Source: Vicinamibacteria bacterium (GTDB lineage: Bacteria > Acidobacteriota > Vicinamibacteria > Marinacidobacterales > Marinacidobacteraceae). Taken from it: 64,000 bases of DNA. Below the pieces are notes generated by a model. The model was given only the letters and a program-made list of their open reading frames with translations. It was not told the DNA's origin and did not search any database. The stretch covers positions 224,001-288,000 of the forward strand of contig CAXXLQ010000004.1 in NCBI GenBank assembly GCA_963668695.2, given 5' to 3'. This document shows, piece after piece, positions 6,075 through 61,338 of this stretch (the stretch's first letter is position 1; every line of letters starts with the position of its first letter). A program made the translations under genes and the position numbers.

Positions 6075-8714
6075 ATGAAATCACAAACTGCCGTTAACAG
6101 CCTGTGGTGGAACCCGGGTGAGTGCCGAGAGCGGCGAGGCGCCCGGCTGACAAGGCGCGTGAGGGAGGAATACCGGGTGTATTTCGACCGAAACGCAACG
6201 CAGAACGGAGCGGAGCGGAGTGGTTCAGCCGGGATGGATCGCCGCTCGAGCCCCCACCGGGAGAACTGGGCCGCCTGGGTTTCACCACAGGCTGTTAAGA
6301 CGGGGCTCTCGCTCCTGCTCTTGGTGGCGGGCGCCGCTTTCGGGGCGGCGGCCGCGGGTTCTGCCGCTATCGCAGAGCCCCCGCGCGTGGCGGAAACCAC
6401 ACCATCCGACGCCGCGGCGAACCGCGTCGTGCGCAGCACCTGCGTCATGTGCCACAACGATCGGCTCCGGACCGGCAACCTGTCGCTCCAGGAGTTCGAC
6501 GTGACGAACGCGGCCGAGCACGCCGACGTCGCCGAGGAGATGGTCCGGAAGCTGCGGGCCGGCATGATGCCGCCGCCCGGCGCGCGCCGGACGGGCAGCG
6601 AGGCGCTCCTGACGCTGGTCGAGACCCTGGAACACCGTCTCGATGAGGCCGCCGCCCTGGCCCCCGACCCGGGCAACCGGCCCTTCCAGCGCCTCAACCG
6701 CTCGGAATACGAGAAGGCGATTCGCGACCTGCTCGGGCTCGAGGTGGACGCCGGAAACTGGCTGCCGCTCGATCCGGTGAGCCACAACTTCGACAACATC
6801 GCCGAGGCCCAGACACTTTCGGCCACGCTGCTCGAGGCCTACCTGAATGCGGCCAGCTCCATCAGCCGCCTCGCGGTCGGCCAGCGAAGCGGGAAGGCGG
6901 TGGATTCAACCTACACCAACTCGCAGTACCTGTCGCAGCATCCGTGGGACCATGTCGAGGGCGCTCCGTACGGCACCCGGGGCGGGCTGGTCGTGAACCA
7001 TGTGTTCCCGGCCGATGCCGAGTACACCTTCGGGGTGACGTTCACCTCCGGGGACAACACCCGCATCGAGGACATCGACGTCTCGATCGATGGTGAGCGG
7101 GTCGCGCTGCTGGCCTACGACACCAACCGCGTGACCGGTGCTGACGGTCGGGGAAGCGTGATCACCCTGACCCCGCGCGTCTCCGTCCGGGCCGGAGCGC
7201 GGCGCATCGCAGCCGCTTTCATCCGGCACCAGGATGGGCCCTACGAGGATCTGATCCGCCCCCACGACTGGTCGTACGCCGGAGGCGGCTCGGGCGGCGC
7301 GGGCATCACAACGCTCCCGCACGTCCGCGACGTCATCATTACCGGCCCCTACAACGCGACCGGCCTGTCGGATACGGCCAGCCGGCACCGCATCTTCACC
7401 TGCCGTCCGACCGCTGCCGACGAGGCGCGGCCCTGCGCCAGCCGGATTCTCGCCCGGCTGGGCCGCGAAGCCTACCGGCGGACCCTCGACGACCGCGAGG
7501 TCGAAGACCTGCTCGCTTTCTTCGAAGAGGGCGCCGACGACGGCGGCTTCGAGGTTGGAGTGCGAACGGCGCTCGAGGCGATGCTCGCGAGCCCGCATTT
7601 CGTGCTGCGGCTGGAACGGGAACCGCTGGACGCCCCGGAGCGGGGCTACCGGTTGAGTGACGTGGACATCGCCTCGCGGCTCTCGTTCTTCCTGTGGGGG
7701 ACGCCCCCGGATGACGAGCTCCAAGTGCTCGCGGACGAGGGCCTGTTGACGCCAGAGGAACTGGATCGGCAGGCGCTGCGCATGCTCGCCGATCCGCGCG
7801 CCGCGGCGCTCGGCCCCCGCTTCGCCGCGCAGTGGTTCCGGCTACAGGACATGGACAAGGTCCGGCCCGACCCGAACTTCTTCCCCAATTTCGACGAAAA
7901 CCTGGCGGAGGCGATGCGGAGCGAGACCGAGTTGTTCTTCGCCAACCTGGTCCAGGAAGACCGGAGCCTGTTTGACCTCTTCCAGGCCGACTACACGTTC
8001 GTCAACGAGCGGCTCGCGCGCCACTACGGCCTTCCGGGAGTGGCCGGACGGCACTTCCGGCGCGTCCGCTACCCCGACGATACCCGCCGCGGGATCCTCG
8101 GCCACGGCAGCGTGCTGGTGCTTACCTCGCTCGCCAACCGCACCTCACCGGTGCTGCGCGGCAAGTGGGTGATGGAGGTGCTGCTCGGCACTCCGCCGCC
8201 CCCACCGCCGCCCGACATCCCCGCGCTCGAGGACATCGAAGAAGTGAACGAGGGCCGGCGGCTCACCACCCGCGAGCGGATGGAGATGCACGCCGCCAAC
8301 CCGAGTTGCAACTCCTGTCACCGGCTGATCGATCCGATCGGGCTCGCCCTCGACAACTTCGACGTGACAGGCAAATGGCGCCTACGCGAGAACGGCGGCC
8401 CACTGGATACGCTCGGCGACTTTTACGACGGCACGCCGGTTTCCTCGCCAAGCGAGTTGGTGGACGCCCTGCTGGTGCGGCCCATTCCGCTGGCGCGCAC
8501 TTTCACGGAAAACCTGTTGGCCTTCGCGGTCGGCCGGCCGATCGAAGCGTTTGATCAGCCGACCATCCGCAACATCGTTCGAGAGGCCGAGGCGAACGAT
8601 TCCCGCATGGCGTCGTTCATCATGGGCGTCGTCCGAAGCGACGCCTTCCAGCGCAAACGGTCGACCGAACGCGCAAGCCAGACAACAGCAGCACCAGAGA
8701 GCAGCAGCAACTGA
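6075..8714 (+). CDS. DUF1592/DUF1588-type (PSD/PSCyt) c-type heme protein carrying a 67-codon in-frame repeat insertion near the N-terminus
   Basis: CVMCH and CNSCH heme motifs, RLNRSEY, ASRLSFFLW, RTSPVLRGKW, PPPPP, G.ALDNFD; followed by DUF1552 gene. Confidence 0.85.
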   Translation: MKSQTAVNSLWWNPGECRERRGARLTRRVREEYRVYFDRNATQNGAERSGSAGMDRRSSPHRENWAAWVSPQAVKTGLSLLLLVAGAAFGAAAAGSAAIAEPPRVAETTPSDAAANRVVRSTCVMCHNDRLRTGNLSLQEFDVTNAAEHADVAEEMVRKLRAGMMPPPGARRTGSEALLTLVETLEHRLDEAAALAPDPGNRPFQRLNRSEYEKAIRDLLGLEVDAGNWLPLDPVSHNFDNIAEAQTLSATLLEAYLNAASSISRLAVGQRSGKAVDSTYTNSQYLSQHPWDHVEGAPYGTRGGLVVNHVFPADAEYTFGVTFTSGDNTRIEDIDVSIDGERVALLAYDTNRVTGADGRGSVITLTPRVSVRAGARRIAAAFIRHQDGPYEDLIRPHDWSYAGGGSGGAGITTLPHVRDVIITGPYNATGLSDTASRHRIFTCRPTAADEARPCASRILARLGREAYRRTLDDREVEDLLAFFEEGADDGGFEVGVRTALEAMLASPHFVLRLEREPLDAPERGYRLSDVDIASRLSFFLWGTPPDDELQVLADEGLLTPEELDRQALRMLADPRAAALGPRFAAQWFRLQDMDKVRPDPNFFPNFDENLAEAMRSETELFFANLVQEDRSLFDLFQADYTFVNERLARHYGLPGVAGRHFRRVRYPDDTRRGILGHGSVLVLTSLANRTSPVLRGKWVMEVLLGTPPPPPPPDIPALEDIEEVNEGRRLTTRERMEMHAANPSCNSCHRLIDPIGLALDNFDVTGKWRLRENGGPLDTLGDFYDGTPVSSPSELVDALLVRPIPLARTFTENLLAFAVGRPIEAFDQPTIRNIVREAEANDSRMASFIMGVVRSDAFQRKRSTERASQTTAAPESSSN
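6098..6294. mobile_element. MITE-like element, type A, in frame inside the DUF1592 gene
   Basis: TIRs CAGCCTGTGGTGGAACCC / GGGTTTCACCACAGGCTG flanked by TTAA at 6094 and 6295. Confidence 0.88.
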
Positions 8715-8724
8715 GGAGTAGATC

Positions 8725-10140
8725 ATGTCCCTGATTACCGGAAAGCACCTGCCCCGCCGGACCTTCCTGCGTGGCGTGGGGGCCTCTGTCGCCCTCCCGT
8801 TCCTGGATGCAATGGCGCCGGCCGGCCGCTCGGGCCGCAACGTCGCGTCAGCGGCGGAGGCCAAGGACGTGACCCGCCTCGTCTGCATCGAGGAGGTGCA
8901 CGGGCTGCCCGGCTGCAACAAGTGGGGCGCCAGCCGTCACCTGTTCGCGCCGGCCACGGAGGGTCGCGACTTCGAGCTGCTACCCGAGAACGCCTTGAAG
9001 CCTCTGGAGCCGTTCCAGGACTACCTGACGATCGTCAGCAACACCGATGTCAGGATGGCCGAGGCGTTCACCGGGCCGGAGATCGGCGGGGACCACTTCC
9101 GGTCCTCCGCAGTCTTCCTGACCCAGTCCCACCCGAAGCAGACACAGGGTTCCGACATCTGGTGCGGCACTTCGCTCGACCAGCTCTACGCGCAGCGGTT
9201 TGGCCAGGCCACGCCGATGCCGTCGCTACAGCTCTGCATCGAGAACCTGGATCAGGCCGGCGGCTGCACCTACAACTACTCCTGCGCCTATACCGACTCG
9301 ATCAGCTGGGCGTCGCCGAACGACCCCCTGCCGATGATCCGCGACCCGCGCATTGCCTTCGAGATGCTCTTCGGGGCGGGCAGCAGTCCGGAGGAGCGCG
9401 CCGAGCGCCGGGCTACCCGCCGCAGCATCCTCGACTGGATCCTCAGCGACGTGGCCGAGGTCCGAAACGAACTCGGCAATCTGGACCGCCTCCGGATGGA
9501 TCGCTATCTCGACCACGTCCGCGAGGTCGAACGGCGCATCCAGATGGTCGAGGGCCACAACGAGAGCGGGGAGGCGCGGGATCTGCCTGACGCCCCACCC
9601 GGCGTGCCGGACTCGTTCTCCGAGCACATGCGGCTCATGTTCGATCTCCAGGTACTGGCGCTGGAGACCGATATGACCCGGGTGGTCGCGTTCAAGACGG
9701 GGCGCGATGCCCAGAACCGCTCGTTCCCGGACAGCGGCACGAACTCACCCTTCCATCCCGCCTCGCACCACGGAAACAACGAAGAGCGGATCATGGACTT
9801 CAATTCGATCTGCCAGTACCGCGTGGGCCAGCTCCCCTACTTCCTCGAGCAGCTCAAGAACACCACGGAAGGCGGCGTCTCCCTGCTCGACAAGACCGCG
9901 ATCATCTGGGGCTCGCCGATGGCCGACTCCAACATCCACAACCACCGGCGCGCGCCGCTGATCTTCTTGGGCCGGGCCAACGGGCATCTCACCGGAAACC
10001 TTCACGTGAAGGCGCCGGACGAGACGCCGATGGCCAACGCGATGCTCGCGCTTATGCAGTCGCTGGGCCTCGAGACGGATTCCTTCGGCGACAGCAACGG
10101 CATCCTTCCGGTGTCGGCGTCGCCGCTGGACACCGATTAG
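8725..10140 (+). CDS. DUF1552 (HXXSHH) domain protein
   Basis: LPRRTFLRG Tat-like N-terminus, YSCAY, HPASHH motif; typical partner of DUF1592 proteins; RBS GAGGAG. Confidence 0.88.
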   Translation: MSLITGKHLPRRTFLRGVGASVALPFLDAMAPAGRSGRNVASAAEAKDVTRLVCIEEVHGLPGCNKWGASRHLFAPATEGRDFELLPENALKPLEPFQDYLTIVSNTDVRMAEAFTGPEIGGDHFRSSAVFLTQSHPKQTQGSDIWCGTSLDQLYAQRFGQATPMPSLQLCIENLDQAGGCTYNYSCAYTDSISWASPNDPLPMIRDPRIAFEMLFGAGSSPEERAERRATRRSILDWILSDVAEVRNELGNLDRLRMDRYLDHVREVERRIQMVEGHNESGEARDLPDAPPGVPDSFSEHMRLMFDLQVLALETDMTRVVAFKTGRDAQNRSFPDSGTNSPFHPASHHGNNEERIMDFNSICQYRVGQLPYFLEQLKNTTEGGVSLLDKTAIIWGSPMADSNIHNHRRAPLIFLGRANGHLTGNLHVKAPDETPMANAMLALMQSLGLETDSFGDSNGILPVSASPLDTD

Positions 10141-10172
10141 CCGTCCGGGGCTCGCGGACAGGGGGAAAACCA

Positions 10173-12805: not shown

Positions 12806-12952
12806 TCCGACCGGGGAAGTGTCCCGGGCGGCTTCGATAGCGCTCCTGCGGCGGCGTGTCGTAGCGCGCTATGGCGCTCCGCCACCCGGGTCGAGAGTGG
12901 ATGGCATGACTTTCGCTGCCCCAGCGGGCGGCCCCGCTACAATGGCCGACGC

Positions 12953-14227: not shown

Positions 14228-14358
14228 GCTCGACCGAAGCGCAACAACGAGCGACGCAAAGCGCCAGTTCTCCCGGTGGGGGGGCGGTTCAGCCGGGATG
14301 GATCGCCGGTCGAGCCCCCACCGGGAGAACTGGGCCGCGTGACTTCATCTACCGGCTG
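14228..14358. mobile_element. Left-truncated type A MITE-like element
   Basis: Internal type A modules and right end CTACCGGCTG; flanked by CTAAG on both sides (the left copy contains the clpX stop); left TIR absent. Confidence 0.75.
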
Positions 14359-14395
14359 CTAAGTCCGTCCGGACCCTTCCTGCCACTTCTCATCC

Positions 14396-16411: not shown

Positions 16412-16951
16412 CAGCCCGTGGACAACGTGGTGTGAGCGCCGAGAGCGGCCAGTCCTCCCGGTGGGGGCGAGGCGCCCGGCTGACAAGGCGCGCGAGGGAG
16501 GAGCCCCCACCGGGAGAACTGGCCCGGGTGTATTGCGACCGAAACGCAACGATGAGCGGCGCGCAGCGACGCGGTTCAGCCGGTGGTGGAACCCACGTGA
16601 GCGCCGAGGCCGGCGAGGCCCAGTTCTCCCGGTGGGGCCAGTTCTCCCGGTGGGGGCCCGGCTGACAAGGCGCGTGAGGGAGGAGCCCCCACCGGGAGAA
16701 CTGGCCCGGGTGTATTGCGACCGAAACGCAACGATGAGCGGCGCGCAGCGACGCGGTTCAGCCGGGATGGATCGCCGGCCGAGCCCCCACCGGGAGAACT
16801 GGGCCGCGCGGGTTTCATCACCGGCTGTTTGGCCGGGATGGATCGCCGGCCGAACGCCGCGTCGGTTTCATCAGCGGTTGTTTGGCCGGGATGCATCGCC
16901 GCTCGAGCCCCCACCGGGAGAACTGGGCCGCACAACTTTGTTCACCGGCTG
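16412..16951. mobile_element. Composite/nested type A MITE-like element
   Basis: Outer ends CAGCCCGTGGACAAC / TTTGTTCACCGGCTG, internal TIR copies, duplicated modules, several CCCACCGGGAGAACTGG motifs. Confidence 0.85.
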
Positions 16952-17397: not shown

Positions 17398-18513
17398 ATG
17401 ACCAGGAAGACCGCGACCGGAACCGGAACCGTCGGCGCGGGGATCGAAGCCGCGCTCGCCGCCGCCAGAGAGCGGTACCAGGAGGTAACCGAGCGGCTCG
17501 CAAACCCCGCGGTCCTCGCGGATCCGGCAGAGCTCAGACGTCTCTCCACCGTTCATTCCGAACTCGAGCCACTCATCGAGGCCGGGAGCCGTCACCGGGA
17601 ACTCGGCGAGCAGCTCGAAGAAGCGCTCGAGATGGAGCGAGACCCCGATCCGGAAATGGCGGAGTTCGCAGCCGGAGAAGCCACGGAGACCCGCGCCAAA
17701 CTGGATCGGGTCGCCGACGAGATTCGGCGCCGGCTGCTTCCGAAAGATCCGAACGACGACCGCAACGTGTTGCTCGAAGTGCGGGCCGGCACCGGCGGCG
17801 AGGAGGCGGCTCTATTCGCCCGCGAGGTCTTCCGGATGTACGAGCAGTACGCAAGGTCCAACGGGTTCCGGGTGGACGTGGTATCCAGTCAGGAATCCCC
17901 AGTGGGGGGCATCAAGGAAATCGTCTCGGTCATCGAGGGAAAGGGCGCTTTCAGCCGGCTCAAGTTCGAAAGCGGCGTGCACCGGGTGCAGCGGGTGCCG
18001 GCTACCGAAGCGTCGGGGCGGATTCACACCTCCGCGGTCACCGTAGCCGTGCTCCCGGAGGCGGAAGACGTGGAGATTCAGATCGATCCCAAGGATCTCC
18101 GGGTGGACACTTTCTGCTCTTCCGGCCCCGGCGGTCAGAGCGTGAACACCACCTACTCCGCGGTGCGCATCACCCACCTCCCCTCCGGTCTCGTGGTCAG
18201 TTGCCAGGACGAAAAGTCCCAGATCAAGAACAAGGCGAAGGCGCTGAGGGTGCTGAAATCCCGGCTGCTCGAACTGGCGCGCCAGGAGCAGCAGGACCAG
18301 GTTGCCGAGGCGCGGCGCGGACAGATAGGCCGCGGTGACCGGAGCGAGAAGATCCGAACCTACAACTTCAAGGAAAACCGGATCACCGACCACCGGATCG
18401 CGCTCACCCTGCATTCCCTCCCGAACGTTCTGAGAGGAGAGCTCGATCCCCTGATCGAGCCGCTCCACGCCCGCGAACAGGCGGACCGTCTAAAGGCGCT
18501 GAACGGCCCGTGA
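17398..18513 (+). CDS. prfA: Peptide chain release factor 1
   Basis: GTGGEEA, GVHRVQRVPAT (PxT), GGQ, RSEKIRTYN; the stop codon lies inside the repeat end. Confidence 0.96.
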   Translation: MTRKTATGTGTVGAGIEAALAAARERYQEVTERLANPAVLADPAELRRLSTVHSELEPLIEAGSRHRELGEQLEEALEMERDPDPEMAEFAAGEATETRAKLDRVADEIRRRLLPKDPNDDRNVLLEVRAGTGGEEAALFAREVFRMYEQYARSNGFRVDVVSSQESPVGGIKEIVSVIEGKGAFSRLKFESGVHRVQRVPATEASGRIHTSAVTVAVLPEAEDVEIQIDPKDLRVDTFCSSGPGGQSVNTTYSAVRITHLPSGLVVSCQDEKSQIKNKAKALRVLKSRLLELARQEQQDQVAEARRGQIGRGDRSEKIRTYNFKENRITDHRIALTLHSLPNVLRGELDPLIEPLHAREQADRLKALNGP

Positions 18514-19046
18514 CCAAAGTCACGCGGCCCAGTTCTCCCGGTGGGGGCTCGAGCGGCGATGCATCCCAGCCAAACAGCCTGTGATGAAACCCGCGCGGCG
18601 TTCGGCCGGCGATCCATCCCGGCCAAACAACCGGTGATGAAACCCACGCGGCCCAGTTCTCCCGGTGGGGGCTCGGCCGGCGATCCATCCCGGCTGAACC
18701 GCGTCGCTTCGCGCCGCTCATCGTTGCGCTTCGGTCGCAATACACCCGGGCCAGTTCTCCCGGTGGGGGCTCCTCCCTCACGCGCCTTGTCAGCCGGACC
18801 CCCACCGGGAGAACTGGGCCTCGCCCCCACCGGGAGGACTGGCCGCTCTCGGCGCTCACGTGGGTTCCACCACCGGCTGTTCACCGCGCCGCTTCGCGCC
18901 GCTCATCGTTGCGCTTCGGTCGCAATACACCCTGTATTCCTCCCTCACGCGCCTTGTCAGCCGGACCCCCACCGGGAGAACTGGGCCTCGCCCCCACCGG
19001 GAGGACTGGCCGCTCTCGGCGCTCATGTCACTGTGCCCGCGGGCCG
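18504..19046. mobile_element. Composite type A MITE-like element (opposite orientation to 16412-16951)
   Basis: Ends ACGGCCCGTGACCAAA / TGTGCCCGCGGGCCGT; reverse complement of the same modules. Confidence 0.85.
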
Positions 19047-19968: not shown

Positions 19969-19977
19969 GATCGAAAC

Positions 19978-28372: not shown

Positions 28373-28593
28373 TCGGCCGTGGCGAAACTCTGCTGGCGCC
28401 AGCCCGTGGCGCGGAGCGCCGCGTGGGAGGGGCGTGGGGAGGGGTCTCCCCTCCCCACGAAAAACGATGGTGCGGATCGCGGAGCGATTCGCGACATCAC
28501 CCGGTGGGCAAAGCGCCCCGCCTGGATAGAACCCGCCGGACGCAGCGCGCGGATCCCCTCGGGAACGGTGCGGGGCGCTTTTCCCGCAGGCTG
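28373..28593. mobile_element. Type B MITE-like element at the pyrC stop
   Basis: Homologous to 32042-32262 (GTGGGGAGGGG..TCCCCTCCCCAC hairpin); right end TTTTCCCGCAGGCTG; flanks CTGA/CTAA 225 bp apart. Confidence 0.8.
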
Positions 28594-31266: not shown

Positions 31267-32295
31267 ATGGGGACACCGGTTCGCGTCCGATTGGATCTCG
31301 CGTACGACGGGACGGACTTCGCCGGCTGGCAGCACCAACCGGACCGGGACACCATACAACGCCGGATCGAGGCAGCGGCACGCCGACTCTACCGGCTGGC
31401 TCCGGACGAAAGGACACCCGTGGTCGGTGCGGGGAGGACTGACGCGGGAGTCCATGCCGAGCGACAGGTAGCCCACTTCGACGCCCCTTTGGTGATTCCG
31501 CCGGCCGGGATTCGGGCGGGTTTGAATGGCCTGCTCCCGGACTCGATTCGAGTCCTCGCCGCCGCCGAGACGGCACCGGACTTCCACGCCCGGTTCGATG
31601 CAACGGGCAAGACCTATCGATATCACCTGCTCACCGAACCGGTGGTCACTCCGCTTCAGACCCGGTACGCCTGGCCCGTGGGTGACAGGCTCTCCCGGGA
31701 GGCCATGGAAGAGGCCGCCGCCGCCTTGGTGGGCCGCCACGACTTCCGGGCGTTTTTCACCGCTCCACCCGGGGAAGAGCCACGGACTCCAGTTCGGAAC
31801 ATCTTCACGGCGCGCTTTGACCAAAGAGAGAACATGCTGGTCTTCGAGGTCGCAGCGGACGGATTCCTGCGCTACATGGTTCGCCGGATGGTCGGAACCC
31901 TGGTGGCGGTCGGGCGGGGGCAGCTTCCTCCGGATCGGGTGGGTGCGTTACTCCGCGACCCGGAGCTGCCGGGCCCCCGGTTCCGGGCGCCCGCCGCCGG
32001 GCTCCGGCTCTACCGGGTTCACTACGACGGCGGCTCCTTAGCAGCCTGTGGTGGAACTCTGAAGGCATCCATTCGCGGCGCGCAACGCCGCGGGGGTGGG
32101 GTGTGGGGAGGGGTTTCCCCTCCCCACGAAAGACGGTGGAGTGAATCGCGCAGCGATTCGCACCGCCAACCTGTGGGGAAAGCGCCCTGCACGCACACAA
32201 ACCGCCAGATTCGGCGCGCGGGACGTCCCGGGGCTCGTGCGGGGTGCTTTCACCACAGGCTGTTGGGCAAGCGCCACTCGCAACGCGCGGGCTGA
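31267..32295 (+). CDS. truA: tRNA pseudouridine(38-40) synthase with a repeat-derived C-terminal insertion
   Basis: AYDGTDFAGWQ, AGRTDAGVHA, FHARF, G.HDF.AF, GFLRYMVR, APAAGL. Confidence 0.95.
   Translation: MGTPVRVRLDLAYDGTDFAGWQHQPDRDTIQRRIEAAARRLYRLAPDERTPVVGAGRTDAGVHAERQVAHFDAPLVIPPAGIRAGLNGLLPDSIRVLAAAETAPDFHARFDATGKTYRYHLLTEPVVTPLQTRYAWPVGDRLSREAMEEAAAALVGRHDFRAFFTAPPGEEPRTPVRNIFTARFDQRENMLVFEVAADGFLRYMVRRMVGTLVAVGRGQLPPDRVGALLRDPELPGPRFRAPAAGLRLYRVHYDGGSLAACGGTLKASIRGAQRRGGGVWGGVSPPHERRWSESRSDSHRQPVGKAPCTHTNRQIRRAGRPGARAGCFHHRLLGKRHSQRAG
32042..32262. mobile_element. Type B MITE-like element in frame in truA
   Basis: CAGCCTGTGGTGGAA / TTTCACCACAGGCTG; flanks TTAG/TTGG 225 bp apart. 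Confidence 0.85.
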
Positions 32296-32348: not shown

Positions 32349-32757
32349 CAGCCGGTGGACAAAGTGAGGTGAGCGCCGCAAGTGGCCAGTGCTTCCGATG
32401 CGTGAGGGAGGAATACCGGGTGTATTTCGACCGAAACGCAACGATGAGCGGCGCGCAGCGACGCGGTGAACAGCCGGGATGGATCGCCGGCCGTTTCCGG
32501 AGCGGGGCGCAAGCACCGCGGAGACCCCGGAGCGGAAGGGACGGGGGGCGGGACCACCCGACCCCCATCCCTTCTTGGCTCGGGAACGCCGTGTGGGTTT
32601 CATTACCGGCTGTTTTGGCAGGGATGCATCGACGCTCGTTTCCGGAGCGGGGCGCAAGCACCGCGGAGACCCCGGAGCAGAAGGGACGGGGGGCGGGGGC
32701 TACCCGACCCCCATCCCTTCTGGCTCGGGAACGCCGCGTGACTTTGTCCACAGGCTG
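32349..32757. mobile_element. Composite type A element carrying two copies of an extra ~95-bp module
   Basis: CAGCCGGTGGACAAAGT / ACTTTGTCCACAGGCTG; duplicated TTTCCGGAGCGGGGCGCAAGCACCGCGGAGACCCCGG...CTCGGGAACGCCG. Confidence 0.85.
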
Positions 32758-33544: not shown

Positions 33545-33657
33545 CAGCCCGTGGACCAAGCGCCCCGCATCACGCCAAACCTGGCAAAACACGGGAAGTC
33601 TTGTCTTCTTCGCATGCGGGGCCCTCGGGACGGCGGCTGACCTTTCGCGACAGGTCG
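33545..33657. repeat. Short degenerate type B-related element
   Basis: CAGCCCGTGGACCAAGCGCCCCGCAT...ATGCGGGGC hairpin directly after the uppS TGA; 3' part resembles 40605-40623. Confidence 0.55.
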
Positions 33658-33679
33658 CTGGGGATTCCCGGGGGGTGAC

Positions 33680-34561: not shown

Positions 34562-35878
34562 TCAGCCCAGCAGACCGGTCTTCGAAAGGTCCAGGTAGAT
34601 CACCAGCACGAAGACCAGCAACATGAAAGCGGCGCCCGCGACCATCAGCCCCTTCCGCACGCCGAGGCTGAGATCGCGACGGGCCGCCGATTCAACGAGC
34701 AGCACGGCGATCTGCCCGCCGTCGAGGACAGGAATTGGCAGCAGGTTGAGCACTCCAAGGCTCAGGCTCAGGATCGCCATGAGCAACAGTACTTCCGTGG
34801 GACCGCGTCGGATGGCGTCGCCGGAGGCCTGCGCGATCCCGATGGGGCCCGAGAACTGGCGTGGTGAGCCCTGCCCCCGAATCACGCGGCCAAGCTGGCC
34901 AACCGTGAGGCTTCCCCAGCGCGCGGTCTCGGCGATCGCTTCCCGTAGCGCGTCCGGAATCGATTCCGCCCTCACTTTGCGGAAGGGCGGCCGAAAGTAC
35001 ACACCGACCTGGGGAGAAGGTTCGCCGCCGTCCGGATTCTCAGCGAGCTGCGGCGTGACCGGAACAACGATTTCCCTGCCGGCTCGCTCGATTCCAAGGG
35101 AGATCTCCCGGGTCCCGGCGGAGCGCACGAACGCCGCCACCTCGTTGGTACTTCCCACCCGGATGTCGTCCACCCGAACGATGAGATCGTCCGGACGAAT
35201 GCCGGCCGCCTCCGCGGGGCTGCCGGGTTTGACCGCATCGATGATTGGCGGCGCGGGAGGCCCGACCCCCGCGTAGCCCAACGCGTCGGGCCCCACGGAA
35301 GCCACCGTGACCGAGAACTGCGTGGGCGTTCCGCCTCGGTCCACCGCGAAGACGACCTCCTGGTCCGGCCGCACGATGATGTGCTCCATCGCGGTACGCC
35401 AGTCGGGAACCGGCTCACCGGCAATCGCCACGATCCGGTCTCCGGCCCGAACACCGGCAACGCTGGCCGGAGACCCCTCGGCGACGTAGGAAACGACCGG
35501 GGGATCGGAAAGGCCCACCCGCCGCTCCATCCCAAAATAGAAAAGCCCAGACAGGATCGCCACCGCCAGCACGAAATTCATGGCCGGGCCGGCGAAGAGG
35601 ATGGCGAGCCGTTCGCCGCGGGTCCGATTCTGGAGTTCGGCGGGGTCGCTCCCGCCCTGCCCCGGCGCGTCTCCTGCCATCTTGACGTAGCCGCCGAGCG
35701 GCAGCAGGCCGATGGTCCATTCGGTATCACCGACCCGCCGGCGGTAGATGTTGGGAGGGAATCCGATCGAGAAGGTCTCCACGCGGACTCCGATGAAGCG
35801 CGCCGCGAGGAAGTGGCCGAATTCGTGGACGACGACGAGCGTGCCCACCACGAGCACGAAAGCGAGGATGGTGAGCAT
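34562..35878 (-). CDS. rseP: RIP metalloprotease RseP
   Basis: HEFGH, PLGGYVKM, AGP..N, two PDZ domains, NLLPIPVLDGG. Confidence 0.95.
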   Translation of the reverse strand: MLTILAFVLVVGTLVVVHEFGHFLAARFIGVRVETFSIGFPPNIYRRRVGDTEWTIGLLPLGGYVKMAGDAPGQGGSDPAELQNRTRGERLAILFAGPAMNFVLAVAILSGLFYFGMERRVGLSDPPVVSYVAEGSPASVAGVRAGDRIVAIAGEPVPDWRTAMEHIIVRPDQEVVFAVDRGGTPTQFSVTVASVGPDALGYAGVGPPAPPIIDAVKPGSPAEAAGIRPDDLIVRVDDIRVGSTNEVAAFVRSAGTREISLGIERAGREIVVPVTPQLAENPDGGEPSPQVGVYFRPPFRKVRAESIPDALREAIAETARWGSLTVGQLGRVIRGQGSPRQFSGPIGIAQASGDAIRRGPTEVLLLMAILSLSLGVLNLLPIPVLDGGQIAVLLVESAARRDLSLGVRKGLMVAGAAFMLLVFVLVIYLDLSKTGLLG

Positions 35879-35887
35879 GGCCAGGAA

Positions 35888-37075
35888 CTAACCGGTAGCC
35901 GCCAGCGCCCGATCGGCGATGAGTTCCCGGGCGAAGGCGCGTGCCCAGGCATCGGCCCGGGCGACTCCTTCCAGGTCGTTCGGTTCTGTCGGCGAACGCG
36001 CGGCCAGTGTCTCAGCGACGACTGCGGGGATCCCGGGAAACGAAAGCCGGTGGTCCAGAAAAGCCTCCACCGCGGCCTCGTTCGCCGCGTTCAGTACCGC
36101 GGGCGCGTCACCTCCCGCAGCCAGCGCTTCGGCGGCGAGGCGGAGGCACGGAAAGCGATCCGGGTCGGGAGGTTCGAAGCGGAGATCGAGTGGCTGATCG
36201 AGCGGCAGTGGGGCGAGGCCTGTCGGAAGGCGCTCGGGCCAGGTCAGCGCATACTGCACCGGCGTGCGCATGTGGGTGACCCCGAGCTGGGCGAGGATCG
36301 AACCGTCCTCGAACTCGACCATGGAGTGCACCACGGACTGCGGATGCACCACTACGCGAATGGACTCCGGCGGCTGATCGAAGAGCCAGCGAGCCTCGAT
36401 CATCTCAAGGCCCTTGTTCATCATGGTGGCGGAATCGATAGTGATCTTGGGCCCCATCCGCCACGTCGGATGACGGAGCGCGGTTTCCGGAGTCGCTTCG
36501 GCGATCTCGAGGCTCGAGGCGGTACGGAACGGACCACCGGAAGCCGTCAGCCAGATGCGGCGGACGGGATCGCACCGGCCGGCGAGGCACTGGTGAATCG
36601 CCGCGTGCTCGCTATCCACGGGGATGAGCCGCGCCCCGGACGTTGCGGCGGCGCGGGTCATCACGGCCCCAGCGGCCACCAGGGATTCCTTGTTGGCGAG
36701 GCCCACCACCTTCCCACTGCGGAGCGCGGCCAGCGTCGGTCGAAGCCCGGCCGCGCCCACGATAGCCGACATGACGAATCCCGCATCCGGGAGAGTGGCT
36801 ACCCGCTCAAGGGCCGAGGGTCCGCCCTCAATTCCCAGGCCCGGCAGCCGGTGCCGATAGGCGCCCTCGAATTTTTCCGCCTCTTCCTCACTACCCAGCG
36901 CCACCAGGTCCGGCCGATAGCGCTCGCACAGGGATGCCAACCGCTCCGTCGAGCGGCCGGCGGCGAGGCCGGCAACCCGAAGCCGCTCGGGAAACCGGTC
37001 CACCACCTCGAGGGTCGTGGAACCGATCGAACCCGTCGCTCCCAGGATGGAGACGCCGCGGATTTCCGGGCTCAT
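35888..37075 (-). CDS. dxr: 1-deoxy-D-xylulose-5-phosphate reductoisomerase
   Basis: ILGATGSIG, LANKESLV, PVDSEH, TASGGPF, HPTW.MG.KITIDSATMMNKGLE. Confidence 0.97.
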   Translation of the reverse strand: MSPEIRGVSILGATGSIGSTTLEVVDRFPERLRVAGLAAGRSTERLASLCERYRPDLVALGSEEEAEKFEGAYRHRLPGLGIEGGPSALERVATLPDAGFVMSAIVGAAGLRPTLAALRSGKVVGLANKESLVAAGAVMTRAAATSGARLIPVDSEHAAIHQCLAGRCDPVRRIWLTASGGPFRTASSLEIAEATPETALRHPTWRMGPKITIDSATMMNKGLEMIEARWLFDQPPESIRVVVHPQSVVHSMVEFEDGSILAQLGVTHMRTPVQYALTWPERLPTGLAPLPLDQPLDLRFEPPDPDRFPCLRLAAEALAAGGDAPAVLNAANEAAVEAFLDHRLSFPGIPAVVAETLAARSPTEPNDLEGVARADAWARAFARELIADRALAATG

Positions 37076-37236
37076 CGTTTCGTAGTCACCTGTGGCAGGT
37101 CTGTTTTCCGTCGGCTCGACGATTGTAGAGCGGCGAGGCAGCCCACACCGGCGGGTGTCGTCTGCGTTCTGCAGGCCTCGCTGACCCTTTACGGACATCT
37201 GGGCCGCCGTTGCCGCTTAACATTCGTGGCCGCCAA

Positions 37237-40478: not shown

Positions 40479-40623
40479 CAGCCCGTGGGAAAAGCACCGC
40501 GCACCGCACCGACGACGCAAGACAGGGAAGGGCCGTGGAAACCGGTGGATGCGGGGCACTTTCCCCACGGGTTGGCGGCGCTCGCGCCGCAGACAGGCAC
40601 GAGCTGACTCTCGCCGCCGGCGG
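40479..40623. repeat. Short type B-related element
   Basis: CAGCCCGTGGGAAAAG...CTTTCCCCACGGGTTG inverted repeat; perfect CTAG at 40475 and 40624 (the left copy contains the stop codon). Confidence 0.65.
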
Positions 40624-40633
40624 CTAGCAGGCC

Positions 40634-41524
40634 GTGGACGACGTTACGCGCCCCGGTTCTACCGGTGGCGGCTCGACCGGGGGCAACGCAGCCAGCTCAG
40701 CGCCCCGTTTCGGACTCCTTGCCGTTGACCTCGACGGTACCCTGCTGAACTCGCAGAAGGAGATCTCCGAACCTGACCGGGCGGCGCTCGCCCGCGCGGA
40801 ACAAGCGGGCGTGGTGGTCGCATTTATCTCAGGCCGGCGCTACGCGGAACTGGAAGTCCTGACTGCGACCCTTTCCGGGGCTGCCTTCCGGGTGGGGCAC
40901 GGAGGCGCGTTGATCCGGCGGTTCCACCAGACCATTGCGGAGATCCCCCTCCCGAAAGCGGCAGCGGAGCGAGCGGTCCGAACTGCGCTGCGCCTGGAAA
41001 TTCCTGCCCTGATCAGCGAGCGCGACGGCACCGTGCGGATCACGGCCCATTCGCCTGCAACGCCCCGGGTCACCCGTTACCTCAGAACCGTCCGCCCAAC
41101 GCCACGCTTCGACCCCGCTCCGACGTTTTCGGAGGATCCCCTGCACCTCGTGCTCGCCGGCACCCCCGAGGCCTGCCGCGAAGCCGAGCGGGACCTTTTG
41201 GAATCGCTTGGTGATTCGGTCAACCTCGAGCGCACCGAATACGCCGCCACCCGTCTCGGTCTGCTGGACGTTCTGGCAAGCACGGCGAACAAGGGAACCG
41301 CACTGAAACGGGTCGCCCGGGAAGCCGGTTTTCCGCTCAGCGCTACGCTCGCGATCGGAGACAACTGGAACGATCTGGAAATGCTCGAAGCCGCGGGGAT
41401 GGGGGTTCTCATGGAAAACGCCGAACCGGAGTTGAAGGCTCGAGGCTTCGAGATCACCTCGTCAAACGACGCGCACGGGGTGGCCGCCGCGATCGACCGG
41501 CTACTCCTGAACAGCCCGTGCTGA
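40634..41524 (+). CDS. Cof-type HAD-IIB hydrolase
   Basis: DLDGTLL, SGR, KG.AL, GDNWNDLEM, GVA.AI; stop supplied by the repeat. Confidence 0.9.
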   Translation: MDDVTRPGSTGGGSTGGNAASSAPRFGLLAVDLDGTLLNSQKEISEPDRAALARAEQAGVVVAFISGRRYAELEVLTATLSGAAFRVGHGGALIRRFHQTIAEIPLPKAAAERAVRTALRLEIPALISERDGTVRITAHSPATPRVTRYLRTVRPTPRFDPAPTFSEDPLHLVLAGTPEACREAERDLLESLGDSVNLERTEYAATRLGLLDVLASTANKGTALKRVAREAGFPLSATLAIGDNWNDLEMLEAAGMGVLMENAEPELKARGFEITSSNDAHGVAAAIDRLLLNSPC

Positions 41525-41762
41525 AACCCATGCGGCCCAGTTCTCCCGGTGGGGGCTCGAGCGGCGATCCATTCCGGCTGAAACCCTCCGCTTCGCATCG
41601 TTCGTCGTTGCGCTTCGGTCGAAATACACTCGGGCCAGTTCTCCCGGTGGGGGCTCCTCCCTCGCGCGTCTTGTCAGCCGGGCCCCCACCGGGAGAACTG
41701 GCCCCACCGGGAGAACTGGGCCTCGCCGCTCTCGGCGCTCACCCGGGTTCCACCACGGGCTG
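41512..41762. mobile_element. Type A MITE-like element
   Basis: ACAGCCCGTGCTGAAACCC / GGGTTCCACCACGGGCTGT with type A internal modules. Confidence 0.87.
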
Positions 41763-42897: not shown

Positions 42898-43657
42898 GTG
42901 GAAAGAGGCTCGCCCCCTTTCACAAAAGATAACGACGCATCGCGACTCGCCGCCGCGCGCCGGAGGCGCGCAAGGGAGTTGCGATACGCGGCGCGAAGCG
43001 CCGGGCGGTTCCCGGATGGGCCCCGACGGGATCAGCACTCACAATCCAGACCAACCTCGATTCCACCGCCCCATCCTCAAAACGGCTCGACCCGAGACAA
43101 GGGCCGCGCTGAACCCTCCCAGAAAAAACTAACGGCAGCGAACTCTGTTCGCTGCCCGCGAGTTCGGGGGAAAGTGTGAAAGGGGGTCCACCCCCTTTCA
43201 CAAGAAAGTAACGACGCATCGCGACTTGCCGCCGCGCGCCGGAGGCGCGCAAGGGAGTTGCGATGCCCGGCGCGAAGCGCCGGGCGGTTCCCGGATGGGG
43301 CCTCGACCGAAACTGCGTTCACAGTCCGGACCAACCGCGCCGCGTGGCCCCGTCCGGAAACCGCTCGACATCGCTTGAGGGTGGCGGAGACCCGTCCGGG
43401 CGAAAACTGATGGCAGCGAACTCTGTTCGCTGCCCGCGAGTTCGGGGGAAAGTGTGAAAGGGGGCTCGCCCCCGTTCACAAAAAAGTAACGACGAATCGG
43501 AACTCGCCGAAGCGCGCGCCAAGCGCGCGAGGGAGTTGCGGTTCCCGGCGCGAAGCGCCGGGCGGATTCCGGGCGGGGCTCAACCGAAACTGCGTTCACG
43601 GTCCGGACCAACCATGCCGCGTGGCCCCGTCCGGAAACCGCTCGACGTCGCTCGACG
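42898..43657. repeat. Tandem array of about 2.7 hairpin-rich 278-bp units (type C)
   Basis: Unit starts at 42898, 43176 and 43454; identical ~50-nt junction GGCAGCGAACTCTGTTCGCTGCCCGCGAGTTCGGGGGAAAGTGTGAAAGGGGG. Confidence 0.88.
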
Positions 43658-46656: not shown

Positions 46657-46833
46657 CCGGGTTTCCGGAGCGGTGCTTGCGCCCCGCTCCGGAAACGACC
46701 GGCGATGCAGCCCGGCTGAACCGCCCCCCCCAACCGGAGAATTGGCGCTCCGCGCTGCGCTTCGGTCCAAATACACCAAGGCCAGTTCTGCCGGTGGGGG
46801 TTTCGGCGCTCACGCCACTCTATCCACAGGCCG
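46657..46833. repeat. Degenerate type A element (left boundary uncertain)
   Basis: Reverse complement of modules seen at 32490-32520, GCCAGTTCTGCCGGTGGGGG, end TATCCACAGGCCG + CTAG. Confidence 0.65.
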
Positions 46834-51651: not shown

Positions 51652-51676
51652 ACAGCGGAGCATCGATCAAGTCCAG

Positions 51677-51815: not shown

Positions 51816-52030
51816 CAGCCTGTGAACAAAGTCATATGGCCCAGTTCTCCCGGTGGGGGCTCGAGTGGCGATGCATCCCGGCTGGTACCCACCTCGAGAA
51901 CTGGCCGCCCCGCTCCGCGTTGCTCATCGTTGCGCTGCGGTCGAAATACACCGGGTATTTCTCCCTCGCGCGCCTTGTCAGCCGGGCGCCTTACCACTCT
52001 CGGCACTAACGCCACTTTGTCCACCGGCTG
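51816..52030. mobile_element. Type A MITE-like element upstream of rel
   Basis: CAGCCTGTGAACAAAGT / ACTTTGTCCACCGGCTG; flanks TTAG/CTAG. Confidence 0.85.
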
Positions 52031-52059
52031 CTAGGGTAAATTGGGAGATAGGGCCAACG

Positions 52060-54234: not shown

Positions 54235-54370
54235 GTCGAGCGGTCCGGAAGGGGGGGAAGCCCCCAGCTTCGCCGCCATGTGTTGGCTCCCGCTCGGGGA
54301 TCGCCGCGGGAAGGGCATCCACGCTGCTGGACGCAACGGTAACCGGCGGGACGGGGCCGAGGCGCTTAGG

Positions 54371-55804: not shown

Positions 55805-56025
55805 GAGAGTAGAAGGAGCGCCTCCGGCAGGTGGTCCCGCCAACCCGGCGGTAAGGGGCACTTAGGATAGCCGCCGGAGCCGCACCCGGGCACCGCGCAT
55901 GAGGGCTCAACGGCCGGAAGACTTGGTAACTCTTCTCCCGCTACAATCGGTGGACCGGCGGCGCCGCCAGGCTGCTCTGGGTAGCCGGTAAGGTGACGCG
56001 GCACTGACACTCTAGGAGGCCTCTT

Positions 56026-58371: not shown

Positions 58372-58652
58372 TCCGGGCGCAAGCAGATCGAGGAGCGGGC
58401 GCCGACGCTGGTCCCCGCCGGCCGTTCCCTTGTCGGAAAAATATGTTCGGTGGAGGGGCTTCGGACTTCAGAAACCGGTCGAACCGACCCGGCGGTACGA
58501 GGCGCTTGCTTGGGTAAGCCGCCGGGATCGGAATCCCGGCGCGGCGCCTCAGGGCCCATCAAGCAAACGCCTCCCCGCCGTTCTCCACCTACAATGGGCG
58601 TGGGTCGGCGGCAGCGCCACGGCGGCGTCGCATGGACTCAAGGAGGCCTCCG

Positions 58653-61007
58653 GTGAACGTGAACCGCGCCACCCGCAACTACCCGTTGCCCCTCGCAGCT
58701 GTCTTCGCTTTCGTCTTCCTCGTAACCCAGTCCGACGCTGCGCGGGCACCCGTTCAGGAGCAGCGGGATCCGACGCAGGAAACGGAACAACAGGAAGAAC
58801 AGGGAGAGCAGGAAGAAGAGGCTGCGCGGGCACCCGAAATCCTCCCGCGCTTCACCGACCAGGTGGTGGTGTCCGCGTCGCGCGTTGAGCAGGAGATCGT
58901 GAACGCCCCGGCGGCGATCGCGGTGATCTCCAGCGAGGTGATCGAAACGCAGGCCGCCAGCAACTTCGGCGACCTGCTCCGCCAGGCACCGGGGGTCAAT
59001 GTGACCCAGCTCTCCAACACCAACTACAGCGTCACGAGCCGCGGTTCCTCCGGGGCGCTTGCCACGGCACAGCTCGTCCTGGTCGATGGGCGCTCCGTCT
59101 ATCAGGACTTCTTCGGCTTCACCAGTTGGGATTTTCTCTCGGTGGGGCTCGACGATCTGGAGCGGATCGAGGTGGTGAACGGGCCGGCTTCGGCCGTCTG
59201 GGGCGCGAACGCCATGAGCGGCGTCGTGAACCTGATCACAAAAGCGCCGCAGGACGCCCTGGGGACCACGCTGAACCTCCGGTTCGGCGCATTCGATCGC
59301 GACGTCACCGGCAACCCGATGGACGCGGGTAGCCAGCTCATGGGCTCCCTGACCCACGCGCAGGCCGTGAACGACCGCTTCGCCTACCGCGCGACCGTCA
59401 GCTTTACCCATCAGGATCCGCTTCCCCGCCCGTTCGGTGAGATCCGGAACGGGACCGGCACGCTGTATCCCCCCATCCAGGGGGTGACGGCCCGGATGCC
59501 CAAGCTGGATTTCCGTGCCGACTGGGACGCTGCCGACGGCGAAAGCGGCTTCCGGTTCTCCGGCGGCTACGGGGGGAGCCAGGGCGTCCTCCACTCCGGG
59601 ATCGGCCCCTTCAATATCCAGCGCGGGACCAACATGTCATACGGCCGCGTCCAGTACCTGCGCGGCTCGCTGGAAATCGGCGCCTTCGTCAACCGCACCT
59701 CAGCGGGGTTCAGCTCGATCCTGTCCCGGGATCCCTCGGGGCGACTGCTCGAGGGCCAGATGAACTCGAGCACCTACGACATCGGCCTGAAGGACACGAG
59801 ATTTCTGGGTGGGCGGCACCTTTTGAGTTACGGCGCCAGCGCCCGCTACATCACCCTCGACTTCACCCTCGCCCCCGAGGGTGACGGCCGCAGCGAGCAG
59901 GGGTTCTACGTCAACGACGAGATCTTTCTGAGCGACCGCTGGCGCTGGATCGTCGGATCCCGAGCGGACCGGATCAGCGTGCTGGACAGGATCGTGCTGT
60001 CCCCCCGCACGACACTCATCTTCAAGCCGACGCCGACGCAAGCCTTTCGCGTCTCGTACAACCGCGCCTTCCGCGCCCCGTCGCTCACCAACAGCTTTAT
60101 CGACACCTTTGTTTCCCAGGAAGCCACTTTCGACCTTCGTCCCGTTTTCCGCGGCTTCTTCGGTGCGCTGAACATTCCGGATTCCGCCCTGCCCGCGCCG
60201 GTCACCTACACGATCCCCATCGGGGTCGTGGGCAACCCCTCACTGGTCCAGGAGTCCCTTACCGCATACGAGGTGGGCTGGTCGGGGGCGCTCAACGACT
60301 GGATCGGCGCGAGCGCCGCCTTCTACGTCAACGATATGCGGGACAGCATCGACTTCACCGATCACACATTCTGGTCCGGCGCGAACCCGCCCGCCGGATG
60401 GAACGAAGCTTTCTCCGAGGTCGCGCAGTTCATCGGGCGCCTGGGAACTGTCCTTCCGCCGGGAACTCTGCCTCCCGCGATCGCCGCGATCGCCCAGAAT
60501 CCGGCCTATCTGATCGACGCGCTCGGCCCGCTCGCAGGCGTCCAGCTTCCGGCCACCTTCACATACATCAACCGGACATCGGCCCGAAACTCCGGGGTTG
60601 AACTCGGGCTCAGCGGGCGCCGCGGCAACGTCGGTGGTTTCCTCAACTATTCGTGGCAGGCCGAACCGGTCGTCGAGGGGTTCGGCGAAGAAGACGCCGA
60701 TGAAATCAGCATCCCGGCGGCGCACCGCATCAATGTCGGCCTCGACGCCGGGATCGGGGCTTTCGATATCGGGCTGGCGCTGAACTACACCGATCGGGCC
60801 TACTGGACCGACGTGTTGACGGCGGAGTTCCACGGCTGGACCGAGGCCTTCACGATGGTCAATGCCACCCTGGCGGTAAACCTGATGGAGGGCCGCTTCC
60901 AGCCCTCCGTCCGGATGATCAACCTGCTCAACCGGGAAATCCAGAATCACATCTTCGGCGACGTGCTGCGGCGGCAGATCATCGGGGGGTTGCGCTACCG
61001 GTTCTGA
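58653..61007 (+). CDS. TonB-dependent receptor, copy 2
   Basis: Colinear paralog of copy 1; RBS AGGAGG + GTG 58653; terminal YRF. Confidence 0.92.
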   Translation: MNVNRATRNYPLPLAAVFAFVFLVTQSDAARAPVQEQRDPTQETEQQEEQGEQEEEAARAPEILPRFTDQVVVSASRVEQEIVNAPAAIAVISSEVIETQAASNFGDLLRQAPGVNVTQLSNTNYSVTSRGSSGALATAQLVLVDGRSVYQDFFGFTSWDFLSVGLDDLERIEVVNGPASAVWGANAMSGVVNLITKAPQDALGTTLNLRFGAFDRDVTGNPMDAGSQLMGSLTHAQAVNDRFAYRATVSFTHQDPLPRPFGEIRNGTGTLYPPIQGVTARMPKLDFRADWDAADGESGFRFSGGYGGSQGVLHSGIGPFNIQRGTNMSYGRVQYLRGSLEIGAFVNRTSAGFSSILSRDPSGRLLEGQMNSSTYDIGLKDTRFLGGRHLLSYGASARYITLDFTLAPEGDGRSEQGFYVNDEIFLSDRWRWIVGSRADRISVLDRIVLSPRTTLIFKPTPTQAFRVSYNRAFRAPSLTNSFIDTFVSQEATFDLRPVFRGFFGALNIPDSALPAPVTYTIPIGVVGNPSLVQESLTAYEVGWSGALNDWIGASAAFYVNDMRDSIDFTDHTFWSGANPPAGWNEAFSEVAQFIGRLGTVLPPGTLPPAIAAIAQNPAYLIDALGPLAGVQLPATFTYINRTSARNSGVELGLSGRRGNVGGFLNYSWQAEPVVEGFGEEDADEISIPAAHRINVGLDAGIGAFDIGLALNYTDRAYWTDVLTAEFHGWTEAFTMVNATLAVNLMEGRFQPSVRMINLLNREIQNHIFGDVLRRQIIGGLRYRF

Positions 61008-61027
61008 TCCGGGCGCAAGGAGACGAA

Positions 61028-61331
61028 CAGCCGGTGGTGGAACCCAGGCGGCGTTCGAGCGGCGATGCATCCCGGCCAGACAGCCGGTAGTGAAACCCAC
61101 GCGGCCCAGTTCTCCCGGTGGGGGCTCGGCCGGCGATCCATCCCGGCTGAACCGCGTCGCTGCGCGCCGCTCATCGTTGCGTTTCGGTCGGAATACACCC
61201 GGGCCAGTTCTCCCGGTGGGGGCTCCTCCCTCACGCGCCTTGTCAGCCGGGCCCCCACCGGGAGGACTGGCCCCACCGGGAGAACTGGGCCTCGCCGCTC
61301 TCGGCGCTCACCCGGGTTCCACCACCGGCTG
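61028..61331. mobile_element. Type A MITE-like element
   Basis: Perfect ACAGCCGGTGGTGGAACCC / GGGTTCCACCACCGGCTGT; absent from the paralogous site at 58388. Confidence 0.9.
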
Positions 61332-61338
61332 TTAAGGA

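Follow-up and report, generated by a model that had tools for sequence, protein, structure and literature searches.

What moves a family of short repeats that lacks a transposase gene, and where do the four bases on either side of each copy come from? Both questions arise from a 64,000-nucleotide stretch of a Vicinamibacteria bacterium genome, called the window here (G000:C4:224001-288000, where G000 is the source assembly GCA_963668695.2). A reading of this sequence alone had described about 13 copies with common ends totalling ~3.5 kb, and all 13 listed loci do contain family sequence (~3.4 kb in all): four are complete, four are arrays or nested copies, and five are truncated or decayed. 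The best overall explanation is probably that they are non-autonomous miniature transposable elements with inverted repeats (MITEs), dependent on an IS1182-like DDE transposase, as laid out below. The two interiors proposed earlier are real, a type A built on a 179-bp backbone and a type B of ~221 bp. The modular build holds for these two backbones, but the ‘modules’ prove to be mainly a single 18-bp unit (~1,500 copies) in fixed slots. Similarly, some copies have the clean YTAR or TA flank pairs (Y, pyrimidine; R, purine) that the sequence-only reading assigned to the family, whereas many window flanks deviate (TGAA/TTGA, CGAA/TTAA, CTGG/CTAT, CGAG/CTAA, TTAG/TTGG and CTGA/CTAA). No transposase family was recognised among the 50 window open reading frames (ORFs) with NCBIfam at E≤1e-10, a comparison that was not a scan aimed at transposases. 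Rfam at its gathering threshold reported one tRNA only in the window.

A candidate partner is present in relatives. A DUF772 search of 28 genomes of the bacterial family identified a 1.5-kb insertion sequence (IS) in G001, G004, G008, G010 and G018 and a fragmentary one in G021. In G001 and G010, both MITE types agree exactly with the IS over its terminal 15–16 bases. The encoded protein is 475 amino acids (aa) long and contains DUF772 and DDE_Tnp_1; its best NCBIfam match is IS1182, with IS5 models scoring lower. Perfect 4-bp repeats surround 22/24 IS copies (12/14 in G001, 3/3 in G010 and 7/7, with AATT, in G018); three G004/G008 IS copies and L223 (wrong left end picked) were excluded from the duplication counts. 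The perfect repeats include asymmetric ones such as CTAT, CTAA, TTAG and GTAA. TTAA is the commonest flank of the G001 IS, and five of the 14 G001 copies immediately adjoin the end of a MITE, within the TTAA that flanks it. In G018, several MITE copies are flanked by AATT-type sequences, as the resident IS is. The clade occurs widely, with relatives of the transposase encoded on 554 metagenome stretches. Both ends were found at 52 of the 76 loci examined, nearly all of the CAGCC type; 33 of these 52 have perfect 4-bp repeats, and most of the other 19 have CTAG on one side. Because the congeners carry an IS1182-like DDE element with matching ends and mostly perfect 4-bp duplications, we assign the family with high confidence to the IS1182-type MITEs and not to IS630-type elements that duplicate TA. 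The sequence-only reading had held that IS5 (YTAR) and IS630 (TA) fit equally well, and this choice is now settled as an IS1182-like partner with a 4-bp register. An autonomous IS with the same ends, which it had proposed to seek, is present in congeners, with no intact copy found in G000. The proposed mobilisation in trans is supported, and would have been the work of this IS.

If the family were instead an IS630/Tc1-type MITE, it would duplicate only TA, and the paired outermost R...Y base would be part of the element. Inner flank bases are indeed complementary in 160/179 YTAR/YTAR pairs, only 94 of which are perfect 4-bp repeats (duplicated haplotype contigs included). However, the IS whose ends match encodes DUF772/DDE_Tnp_1 and is bordered by 4-bp repeats such as CTAT/CTAT and GTAA/GTAA, a central TA is missing from many targets, and near-identical copies have different inner bases. 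Moreover, the inner pair tracks the outer bases (for C..G, 31 G/C vs 2 A/T; for T..A, 19 A/T vs 1 G/C). Donor-derived flanks account for the paired outermost base better than TA duplication does, and on these flank and IS data, no search aimed at IS630 having been made, we regard an IS630 origin as very improbable. An IS5-subgroup partner was also rejected: the DUF772 elements of 325–340 aa in G019, G020 and G042, IS5-like by inspection, have different ends. The ends of other DDE elements in G000 differ as well. One of these, L001 (G000:C4:1.826 Mb), is an intact IS1182 of another clade with CTAG flanks, and its right end has only ~7 terminal bases in common with the MITE end; it is a possible weak cross-mobiliser.

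Orthologous empty sites are taken to preserve the target sequence before insertion. Such sites are present in relatives, including at window loci 6098, 28373, 32042 and 41512. The orthologue comparison covered 1.8 of ~4.9 Mb of G001 and 0.48 Mb of G004. Between G000 and G001, 33/41 short-gap sites are shorter by exactly the element plus 4 bp, as are 10/14 in G004. A clean G001 set kept 23 of the 33 sites, with ≤2 mismatches in 20 neighbouring bases, and dropped 10. Here both flanks equal the empty 4-mer at 5/23 sites, one flank does so at 2/23, and neither does at 16/23. In total, 65/184 flank bases (35%) differ from the empty 4-mer, compared with 12/152 (7.9%) at shared filled sites (p=8e-10) and a background divergence of 4.6% in neighbouring DNA. 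The changes run toward YTAR 42 times and away from it 3 times, the shift being less marked at the outermost flank base; YTAR is present at seven of the 23 empty 4-mers, compared with 17 flanks on the left and 16 on the right. In the G004 set, from which 7 of 10 sites were kept, the same excess of differences is observed (16/56 bases). Of five sites at which outgroups were searched, three were polarised as ancestral-empty, including one within conserved codons: GCCG inside conserved codons (G001, G004) became CTAG/CTGA, TCCG/CCCG (G001, G008) became TTAG/CTAG, and GTGA (G001, G008, G009) became GTAA/TTAA. At 19 shared sites the orientation is always the same and several non-YTAR flanks are unchanged between species, which argues against later drift of flanks. 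From the 35% vs 8% difference, the YTAR direction and the ancestral-empty outgroups we infer that flank bases arrive with the element. Flanks were thus probably altered at the time of insertion, and by comparison of sites they look partly donor-derived. At one further site (L314, G001, near 4.153 Mb) a full IS stands where G000 has a MITE, with different flanks; either independent insertions or exchange would account for it.

An ordinary IS1182-type MITE could also duplicate its 4-bp target faithfully and acquire YTAR flanks afterwards, through switching of templates between the arms of the long hairpin or through conversion by other copies, or sites could mutate to YTAR before insertion. Young IS copies mostly have perfect duplications, the arms covary strongly within copies, and 34 flank changes create arm pairing, with 5 abolishing it. 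Body conversion is common, and some orthologous bodies differ by 9–12%, like random paralogs. However, flanks at shared sites differ little and several non-YTAR ones persist, as described above, and templating cannot convert GCCG or TCCG to CTAG or TTAG. Prior mutation would not make empty sites at least two changes from YTAR as frequent as those one change away (8 and 8, where we estimate an expected ratio of ~1:30). We therefore consider faithful duplication with a later or earlier change to YTAR unlikely.

The family extends across the chromosome. Contigs C1-C3, together with the final 130 kb of C4, duplicate other parts of C4 as alternative haplotypes, mostly 97–99.7% identical, and final genome counts are restricted to C4:1-3,783,324 (the non-redundant chromosome); the duplicate haplotype contigs are still inside the CAGCC.GTG counts, end-matrix totals, size ladder, slot tallies and slot-linkage figures. 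CAGCC.GTG occurs 1,267 times in the genome, where Markov models of order 3 and order 5 predict 253–293. With an end matrix built from element-internal positions, ~1,400 matches reach at least 13 bits, vs ~32 on the reversed genome. On the non-redundant chromosome there are 1,323 ends in 515 loci, 372 of them with a left and a right outer end, and these 372 take up 122,778 bp, or 3.2% of the chromosome. Interior motifs assign 410 loci to type A, 16 to type B, 22 to both and 67 to neither. Family ends are found in 21/24 genomes searched from the bacterial family; these genomes, the 18-mer in 20/24 of them and several independent records rule out an assembly artefact. No whole-element gain or loss between haplotypes appears among the indels listed over ~280 kb, a check that the interiors of large replaced blocks lie outside. 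MITE orientation shows no bias with respect to replichore in 100-kb bins.

Stop codons and the gaps between genes are where copies have built up, and few lie in coding DNA. Genes were called with a purpose-made simple codon-model caller (2,736 genes, 82% coding). In regions of at least 62% GC, YTAR sites are occupied at 142/418 stop codons, 122/531 short intergenic positions and 26/507 coding positions, with a Mantel-Haenszel odds ratio of 1.8 for stop vs short intergenic; in this test unpaired ends may count twice, and it is partly circular if flanks are donor-derived. The enrichment at stop codons that the window had suggested is thus borne out, and an enrichment at −10 boxes, also suggested, is not (TANNNT context 35/121 vs 479/1,493, p=0.54). 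A stop codon adjoins 109 of the 372 complete loci in exact register. The abutting codon is TAG in 57 cases, TAA in 44 and TGA in 5, yet TGA terminates 62% of called genes; one polarised site shows a change from an ancestral TGA to TAA. A list of 52 ‘CDS’ (coding sequence) insertions arose for the most part artificially, when elements close to gene ends were excised in silico, and it does not enter any count of coding insertions.

These observations suggest the following mechanism. An IS1182-like transposase would have acted in trans and would now be a relic or missing in the G000 assembly. The excised element would carry 4-nt overhangs of donor flank, either through piggyBac-like hairpin opening or from a cleaved circle junction, and on insertion these overhangs would often replace target bases. 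Each jump would then bring a TAA or TAG stop to each end and make two new YTAR targets, and these stops and targets would make gene ends favoured places for insertion and help tandem and nested arrays to grow. In piggyBac, the excised element bears 4-nt flank overhangs (PMC7351741). The likeness extends to a 4-nt palindromic target (TTAA, the commonest flank of the G001 IS) and a similar predicted fold. PiggyBac is eukaryotic and strict for TTAA in vivo, and the overhang chemistry shown there would apply to the IS1182-like clade by analogy; two-sided overwriting, moreover, is not simply predicted by piggyBac chemistry. Judging by the title of a 2013 study by Li, piggyBac can reportedly cause mutations at noncanonical sites. 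Target alteration also has a precedent within the IS1182 family, in a different form, since IS1272 replaces target hairpins and leaves no duplication (PMC5678879, PMC4923244). As in IS1272, target sequence here is replaced or deleted instead of simply duplicated; unlike in IS1272, the target is a 4-mer, the 4-nt register is exact and the new bases converge on YTAR. Literature searches, which did not reach ISfinder, most subscription papers or supplements, found no description of piggyBac-like overhang chemistry for IS1182 and no paper that treats IS1182 together with piggyBac. Overhang carry-over as such remains a tentative proposal, to which we give somewhat less than an even chance. More tentative again is the full chain, in which an IS1182-like clade would excise with 4-nt donor-flank overhangs that overwrite the target, its MITEs would write stops and YTAR targets, and the resulting feedback would have taken the family to ~3% of a gene-dense genome, parasitised by a self-spreading 18-bp unit.

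Several points weigh against this account. The NCBIfam score behind the IS1182-like label, itself a judgement from sequence, is 146 bits against a cut-off of 270, and the IS5 scores are also under cut-off. No intact cognate transposase was found in G000, an assembly that is 92% complete. G000 does hold a scrambled relic of it (about C4:1160-1475, near the contig start), which could reflect decay or a poor consensus, and it also holds a different IS1182 clade at 22–25% identity. The closest structures to an AlphaFold model of the transposase (pLDDT, the predicted local distance difference test, 78) are tied between Tn5 (Z 13.8, root-mean-square deviation (rmsd) 4.3, 269 aligned) and piggyBac (Z 13.3, rmsd 5.0, 272 aligned), so that the predicted fold matches Tn5, which has blunt ends, as well as it matches piggyBac. 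A PDB sequence search with the transposase profile returned nothing, and Foldseek with the model returned weak DDE matches only. Hybrid flanks in short-read metagenome contigs may be chimeric. The YTAR shift in the G004 set is not significant (6:1, p=0.125, n=7), and at the other two of the five outgroup-searched sites outgroups were absent or uninformative, leaving few sites polarised. Asymmetric targets are sometimes duplicated perfectly, both by IS copies and by MITEs (the 5/23 sites with both flanks faithful), and overwriting is therefore not obligatory. Simple overhang carry-over followed by replication predicts one faithful flank always, whereas one-sided change is observed at 2/23 sites and two-sided change at 16/23; the latter would need an unexplained bias of repair to the donor strand. 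Only 2/14 G001 IS copies have a usable empty ortholog, and one of these is faithful and one differs at an inner base. Finally, the stop-codon tallies rest on the calls of a simple gene caller.

Simple copies form a size ladder of 179 bp (57 copies), 197/198, 215/216, 233/234, 251/252 and 269/270 bp, each step being one 18-bp unit, in five main slots and both orientations. At least one unit is present in 153/217 oriented simple copies, and 29 of the 32 combinations of the five slots are observed. On the non-redundant chromosome the unit occurs 1,201 times exactly and 1,528 times with ≤2 mismatches; 1,289 copies lie near MITE ends, and others lie in a separate family resembling repetitive extragenic palindromes (REPs). 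The unit is dispersed, sometimes tandem, and present or absent at orthologous sites: unit counts differ at 31/40 shared G000/G001 sites, and there are five clean 18-bp differences between co-assembled haplotypes. Bodies are thus remodelled after insertion, by unit gain and loss at the five main slots, deletion and tandem growth, while the element stays put. Substitutions linked to a slot occur in 68/68 and 67/67 carriers and in 0/117 and 0/118 non-carriers. We think it slightly better than an even bet that the unit spreads by conversion; the process envisaged is gene conversion of short patches between copies, while template switching at microhomologies would now and then open a new slot. One strand of the unit (example at window 6252-6269) could form a 4-bp stem with a GAGAA loop, a predicted pattern that the commonest variant keeps; we take this loop to resemble the GNRNA pentaloop known from boxB.

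Alternatively, the unit could be an independent micro-element inserted de novo by a dedicated enzyme, such as a REP-associated tyrosine transposase (RAYT) or a reverse transcriptase, and could itself drive the success of the family. The exact 18-mer is present in 20/24 genomes of the bacterial family and in 0/16 from the rest of the order, its slots in MITEs and RAYT-type REPs are many and vary by genus, and one haplotype pair keeps locus-specific variants ~10 nt away across a unit gain or loss. However, neither a reverse transcriptase or retron nor a Y1 transposase was found in G000, reverse transcriptases occur in only 4/28 family genomes, and RAYT was not found in the unit-rich G000, G004 and G018; neither enzyme tracks the unit. 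Units are also almost lacking from unique DNA and are absent from inside the IS copies, and one polymorphic gain carries an adjoining C>T typical of other MITE copies. Only 12 of 1,678 sites in G000 have low-copy flanks on both sides, all of them decayed repeats or chance matches, and no unique-DNA template for the 18-mer was found there. We judge de novo insertion rather unlikely. A viral source was also discarded; the one match, in viral_contigs, has an unrelated context and is probably due to chance. RAYT-like genes do occur in 15/27 relatives (L183-L203), most of them beside arrays of another, short REP-like family in which the 18-bp unit is also found. About 175 such REPs remain in G000, with no RAYT found. 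A REP or REPIN system with RAYT was accordingly rejected for the MITE itself, the RAYT genes being mostly flanked by this other family. A 6-kb contig labelled Gammaproteobacteria (L105) has the same REP with the 18-bp unit, through mis-binning or transfer.

The backbone folds into a long hairpin, and the repeats could in principle be host-maintained regulatory RNA elements that rewire operons. One strand folds markedly better in 55/55 unit-free copies (mean −108 vs −87 kcal/mol), and in these copies G.T exceeds A.C at paired positions (33 vs 9, counts that kinship among copies inflates). Copies also split a coupled stop/start and provide gene ends. However, among 213 copies the better-folding strand is antisense to the host gene in 134 and sense in 79 (p=2e-4), presence and content are labile between species, and the TANNNT context is not enriched. 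A regulatory role of this kind is improbable.

Within the window, the copies (Table 1) lie among housekeeping genes, including clpX, rho, prfA, pyrC, uppS, tgt, secDF and relA/spoT.

Table 1. MITE loci and related features, in window coordinates; empty sites are shorter by the element plus 4 bp.
Feature	Position	Strand	Remarks
Complete type-A MITE, 197 bp (179 + one 18-bp unit)	6098..6294	+	Flanks TTAA/TTAA; empty in G004, G008
Example of 18-bp unit	6252..6269	-	27 window copies (≤2 mismatches), all within type-A loci
Left-truncated type-A copy	14228..14358	+	Immediately after clpX stop
Nested/tandem type-A array, seven 18-bp units	16412..16951	+	After rho
Type-A array	18504..19046	-	At prfA 3′ end; prfA stop (18511-18513) within element
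Type-B copy, left end decayed	28373..28593	+	Flanks CTGA/CTAA; empty in G008, G009, G014
Complete type-B copy, 221 bp	32042..32262	+	Flanks TTAG/TTGG; adjoins stop of ORF 31526-32041; empty in G001, G004
Type-A composite, two copies of a different ~90-bp insert	32349..32757	+	
Decayed type-B remnant (right limit approximate)	33545..33660	-	After uppS stop
Decayed type-B remnant (right limit approximate)	40479..40590	-	
Additional type-A end remnant	40626-40680		Found beyond the 13 listed loci
Complete type-A copy, 251 bp (179 + four units)	41512..41762	-	Flanks TGAA/TTGA; provides Cof-type hydrolase stop; empty in G009
Type-A remnant (left limit approximate)	46660..46833	-	After secF
Complete type-A copy, 215 bp	51816..52030	-	Flanks TTAG/CTAG; upstream of relA/spoT
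Nested type-A copy, 304 bp	61028..61331	-	Flanks CGAA/TTAA

Several copies alter the genes beside them. The copy at 28373 separates the overlapping stop and start of pyrC and a TIGR02757 gene, and copies form new gene ends at prfA and the Cof hydrolase gene. The copy at 6098 adds 201 nt in frame (67 codons, open) behind the sixth codon of ORF 6075-8714, and a hydrophobic signal-like stretch follows it. Rickettsia palindromic elements are palindromic repeats inserted in frame into protein-coding genes. The 6098 copy, a predicted coding insertion, is like them in being in frame and open and in having an empty ortholog (G004, G008); unlike in Rickettsia, such insertions are rare in G000, with two strict signal-like cases among the 372 complete loci. 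The second (G000:C4:3367059-3367582, +528 nt) also follows codon 6 of a protein with a signal-like stretch. At L405 (G000:C4:2766972), a 179-bp MITE lies inside the gene for a small membrane protein, which four relatives have intact; the insert keeps the frame but contains a stop.

Other repeats and genes share the window. The ~90-bp insert (window 32473-32757) occupies a MITE slot, giving copies of 287 and 305 bp, and forms variable tandem arrays between haplotypes. After tgt, positions 42901-43646 hold three copies of a different repeat family at ~278-bp spacing, with up to ~90 overlapping BLAST matches in the chromosome. After uppS-cdsA, positions 34562-37198 hold rseP and a neighbouring ORF on the minus strand, which we take from a motif to be dxr; in G008, a MITE and an IS lie just upstream of this ORF. 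Elsewhere in G000, a tandem array of ~23 kb with a period of ~350 bp lies at G000:C4:2803874-2826790.

Comparison with known elements places the family. ERIC is grouped with the IS630-type MITEs. The same group includes RUP and Correia/NEMIS, which have TA targets and IS630-like ends (PMC2229807). The family is like these three in its high copy number, RNA-folding hairpin, intergenic location and some in-frame fusions, and unlike them in its 4-bp register and in ends that match an IS1182-like IS. Closer relatives are the IS1182-dependent MITEPye1 of Paracoccus yeei, with 1–3 chromosomal copies (PMC11578231), and the ISMac2-linked MITEs of Methanosarcina, with 7–14 (PMC3852290). All are short, lack a transposase gene, have IS1182-matching terminal repeats, 4-bp direct repeats and a predicted long stem-loop, and are mostly intergenic. 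The G000 family differs in its ~500 loci, in the 18-bp unit within its copies, in its nested arrays and in flanks that in many cases are not copies of the target. The 18-bp unit resembles the small dispersed repeats (SDR) of Nostoc, which are dispersed and possibly mobile (PMC2884548; PMC3116915); compared by brief description only, both are ~20 bp, dispersed, sometimes tandem and possibly mobile, and the unit differs in sequence and phylum and in being nearly confined to fixed slots in other repeats. The sequence-only reading did not recognise a named family. Consistent with this, our literature searches, within the reach given above, found no description of it, and three family motifs gave zero literature matches; its kind, however, is already known, and on most tested features the MITE family as such is a member of the IS1182-dependent MITEs. 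It stands apart from known members in the number of its copies, in the micro-unit inside them and in targets that appear to be overwritten.

Target-site duplications are commonly interpreted as a record of target preference. If flanks are partly donor-derived, that reading would fail for the IS1182-like clade, and the preference for YTAR and stop codons would be partly made by the element. The mechanism of IS1182 looks little characterised in the literature consulted, and an intact transposase together with a 179-bp substrate brings it within direct experimental reach. As a natural data set on tiny repeats that spread inside other repeats without those repeats moving, the family is also unusually large.

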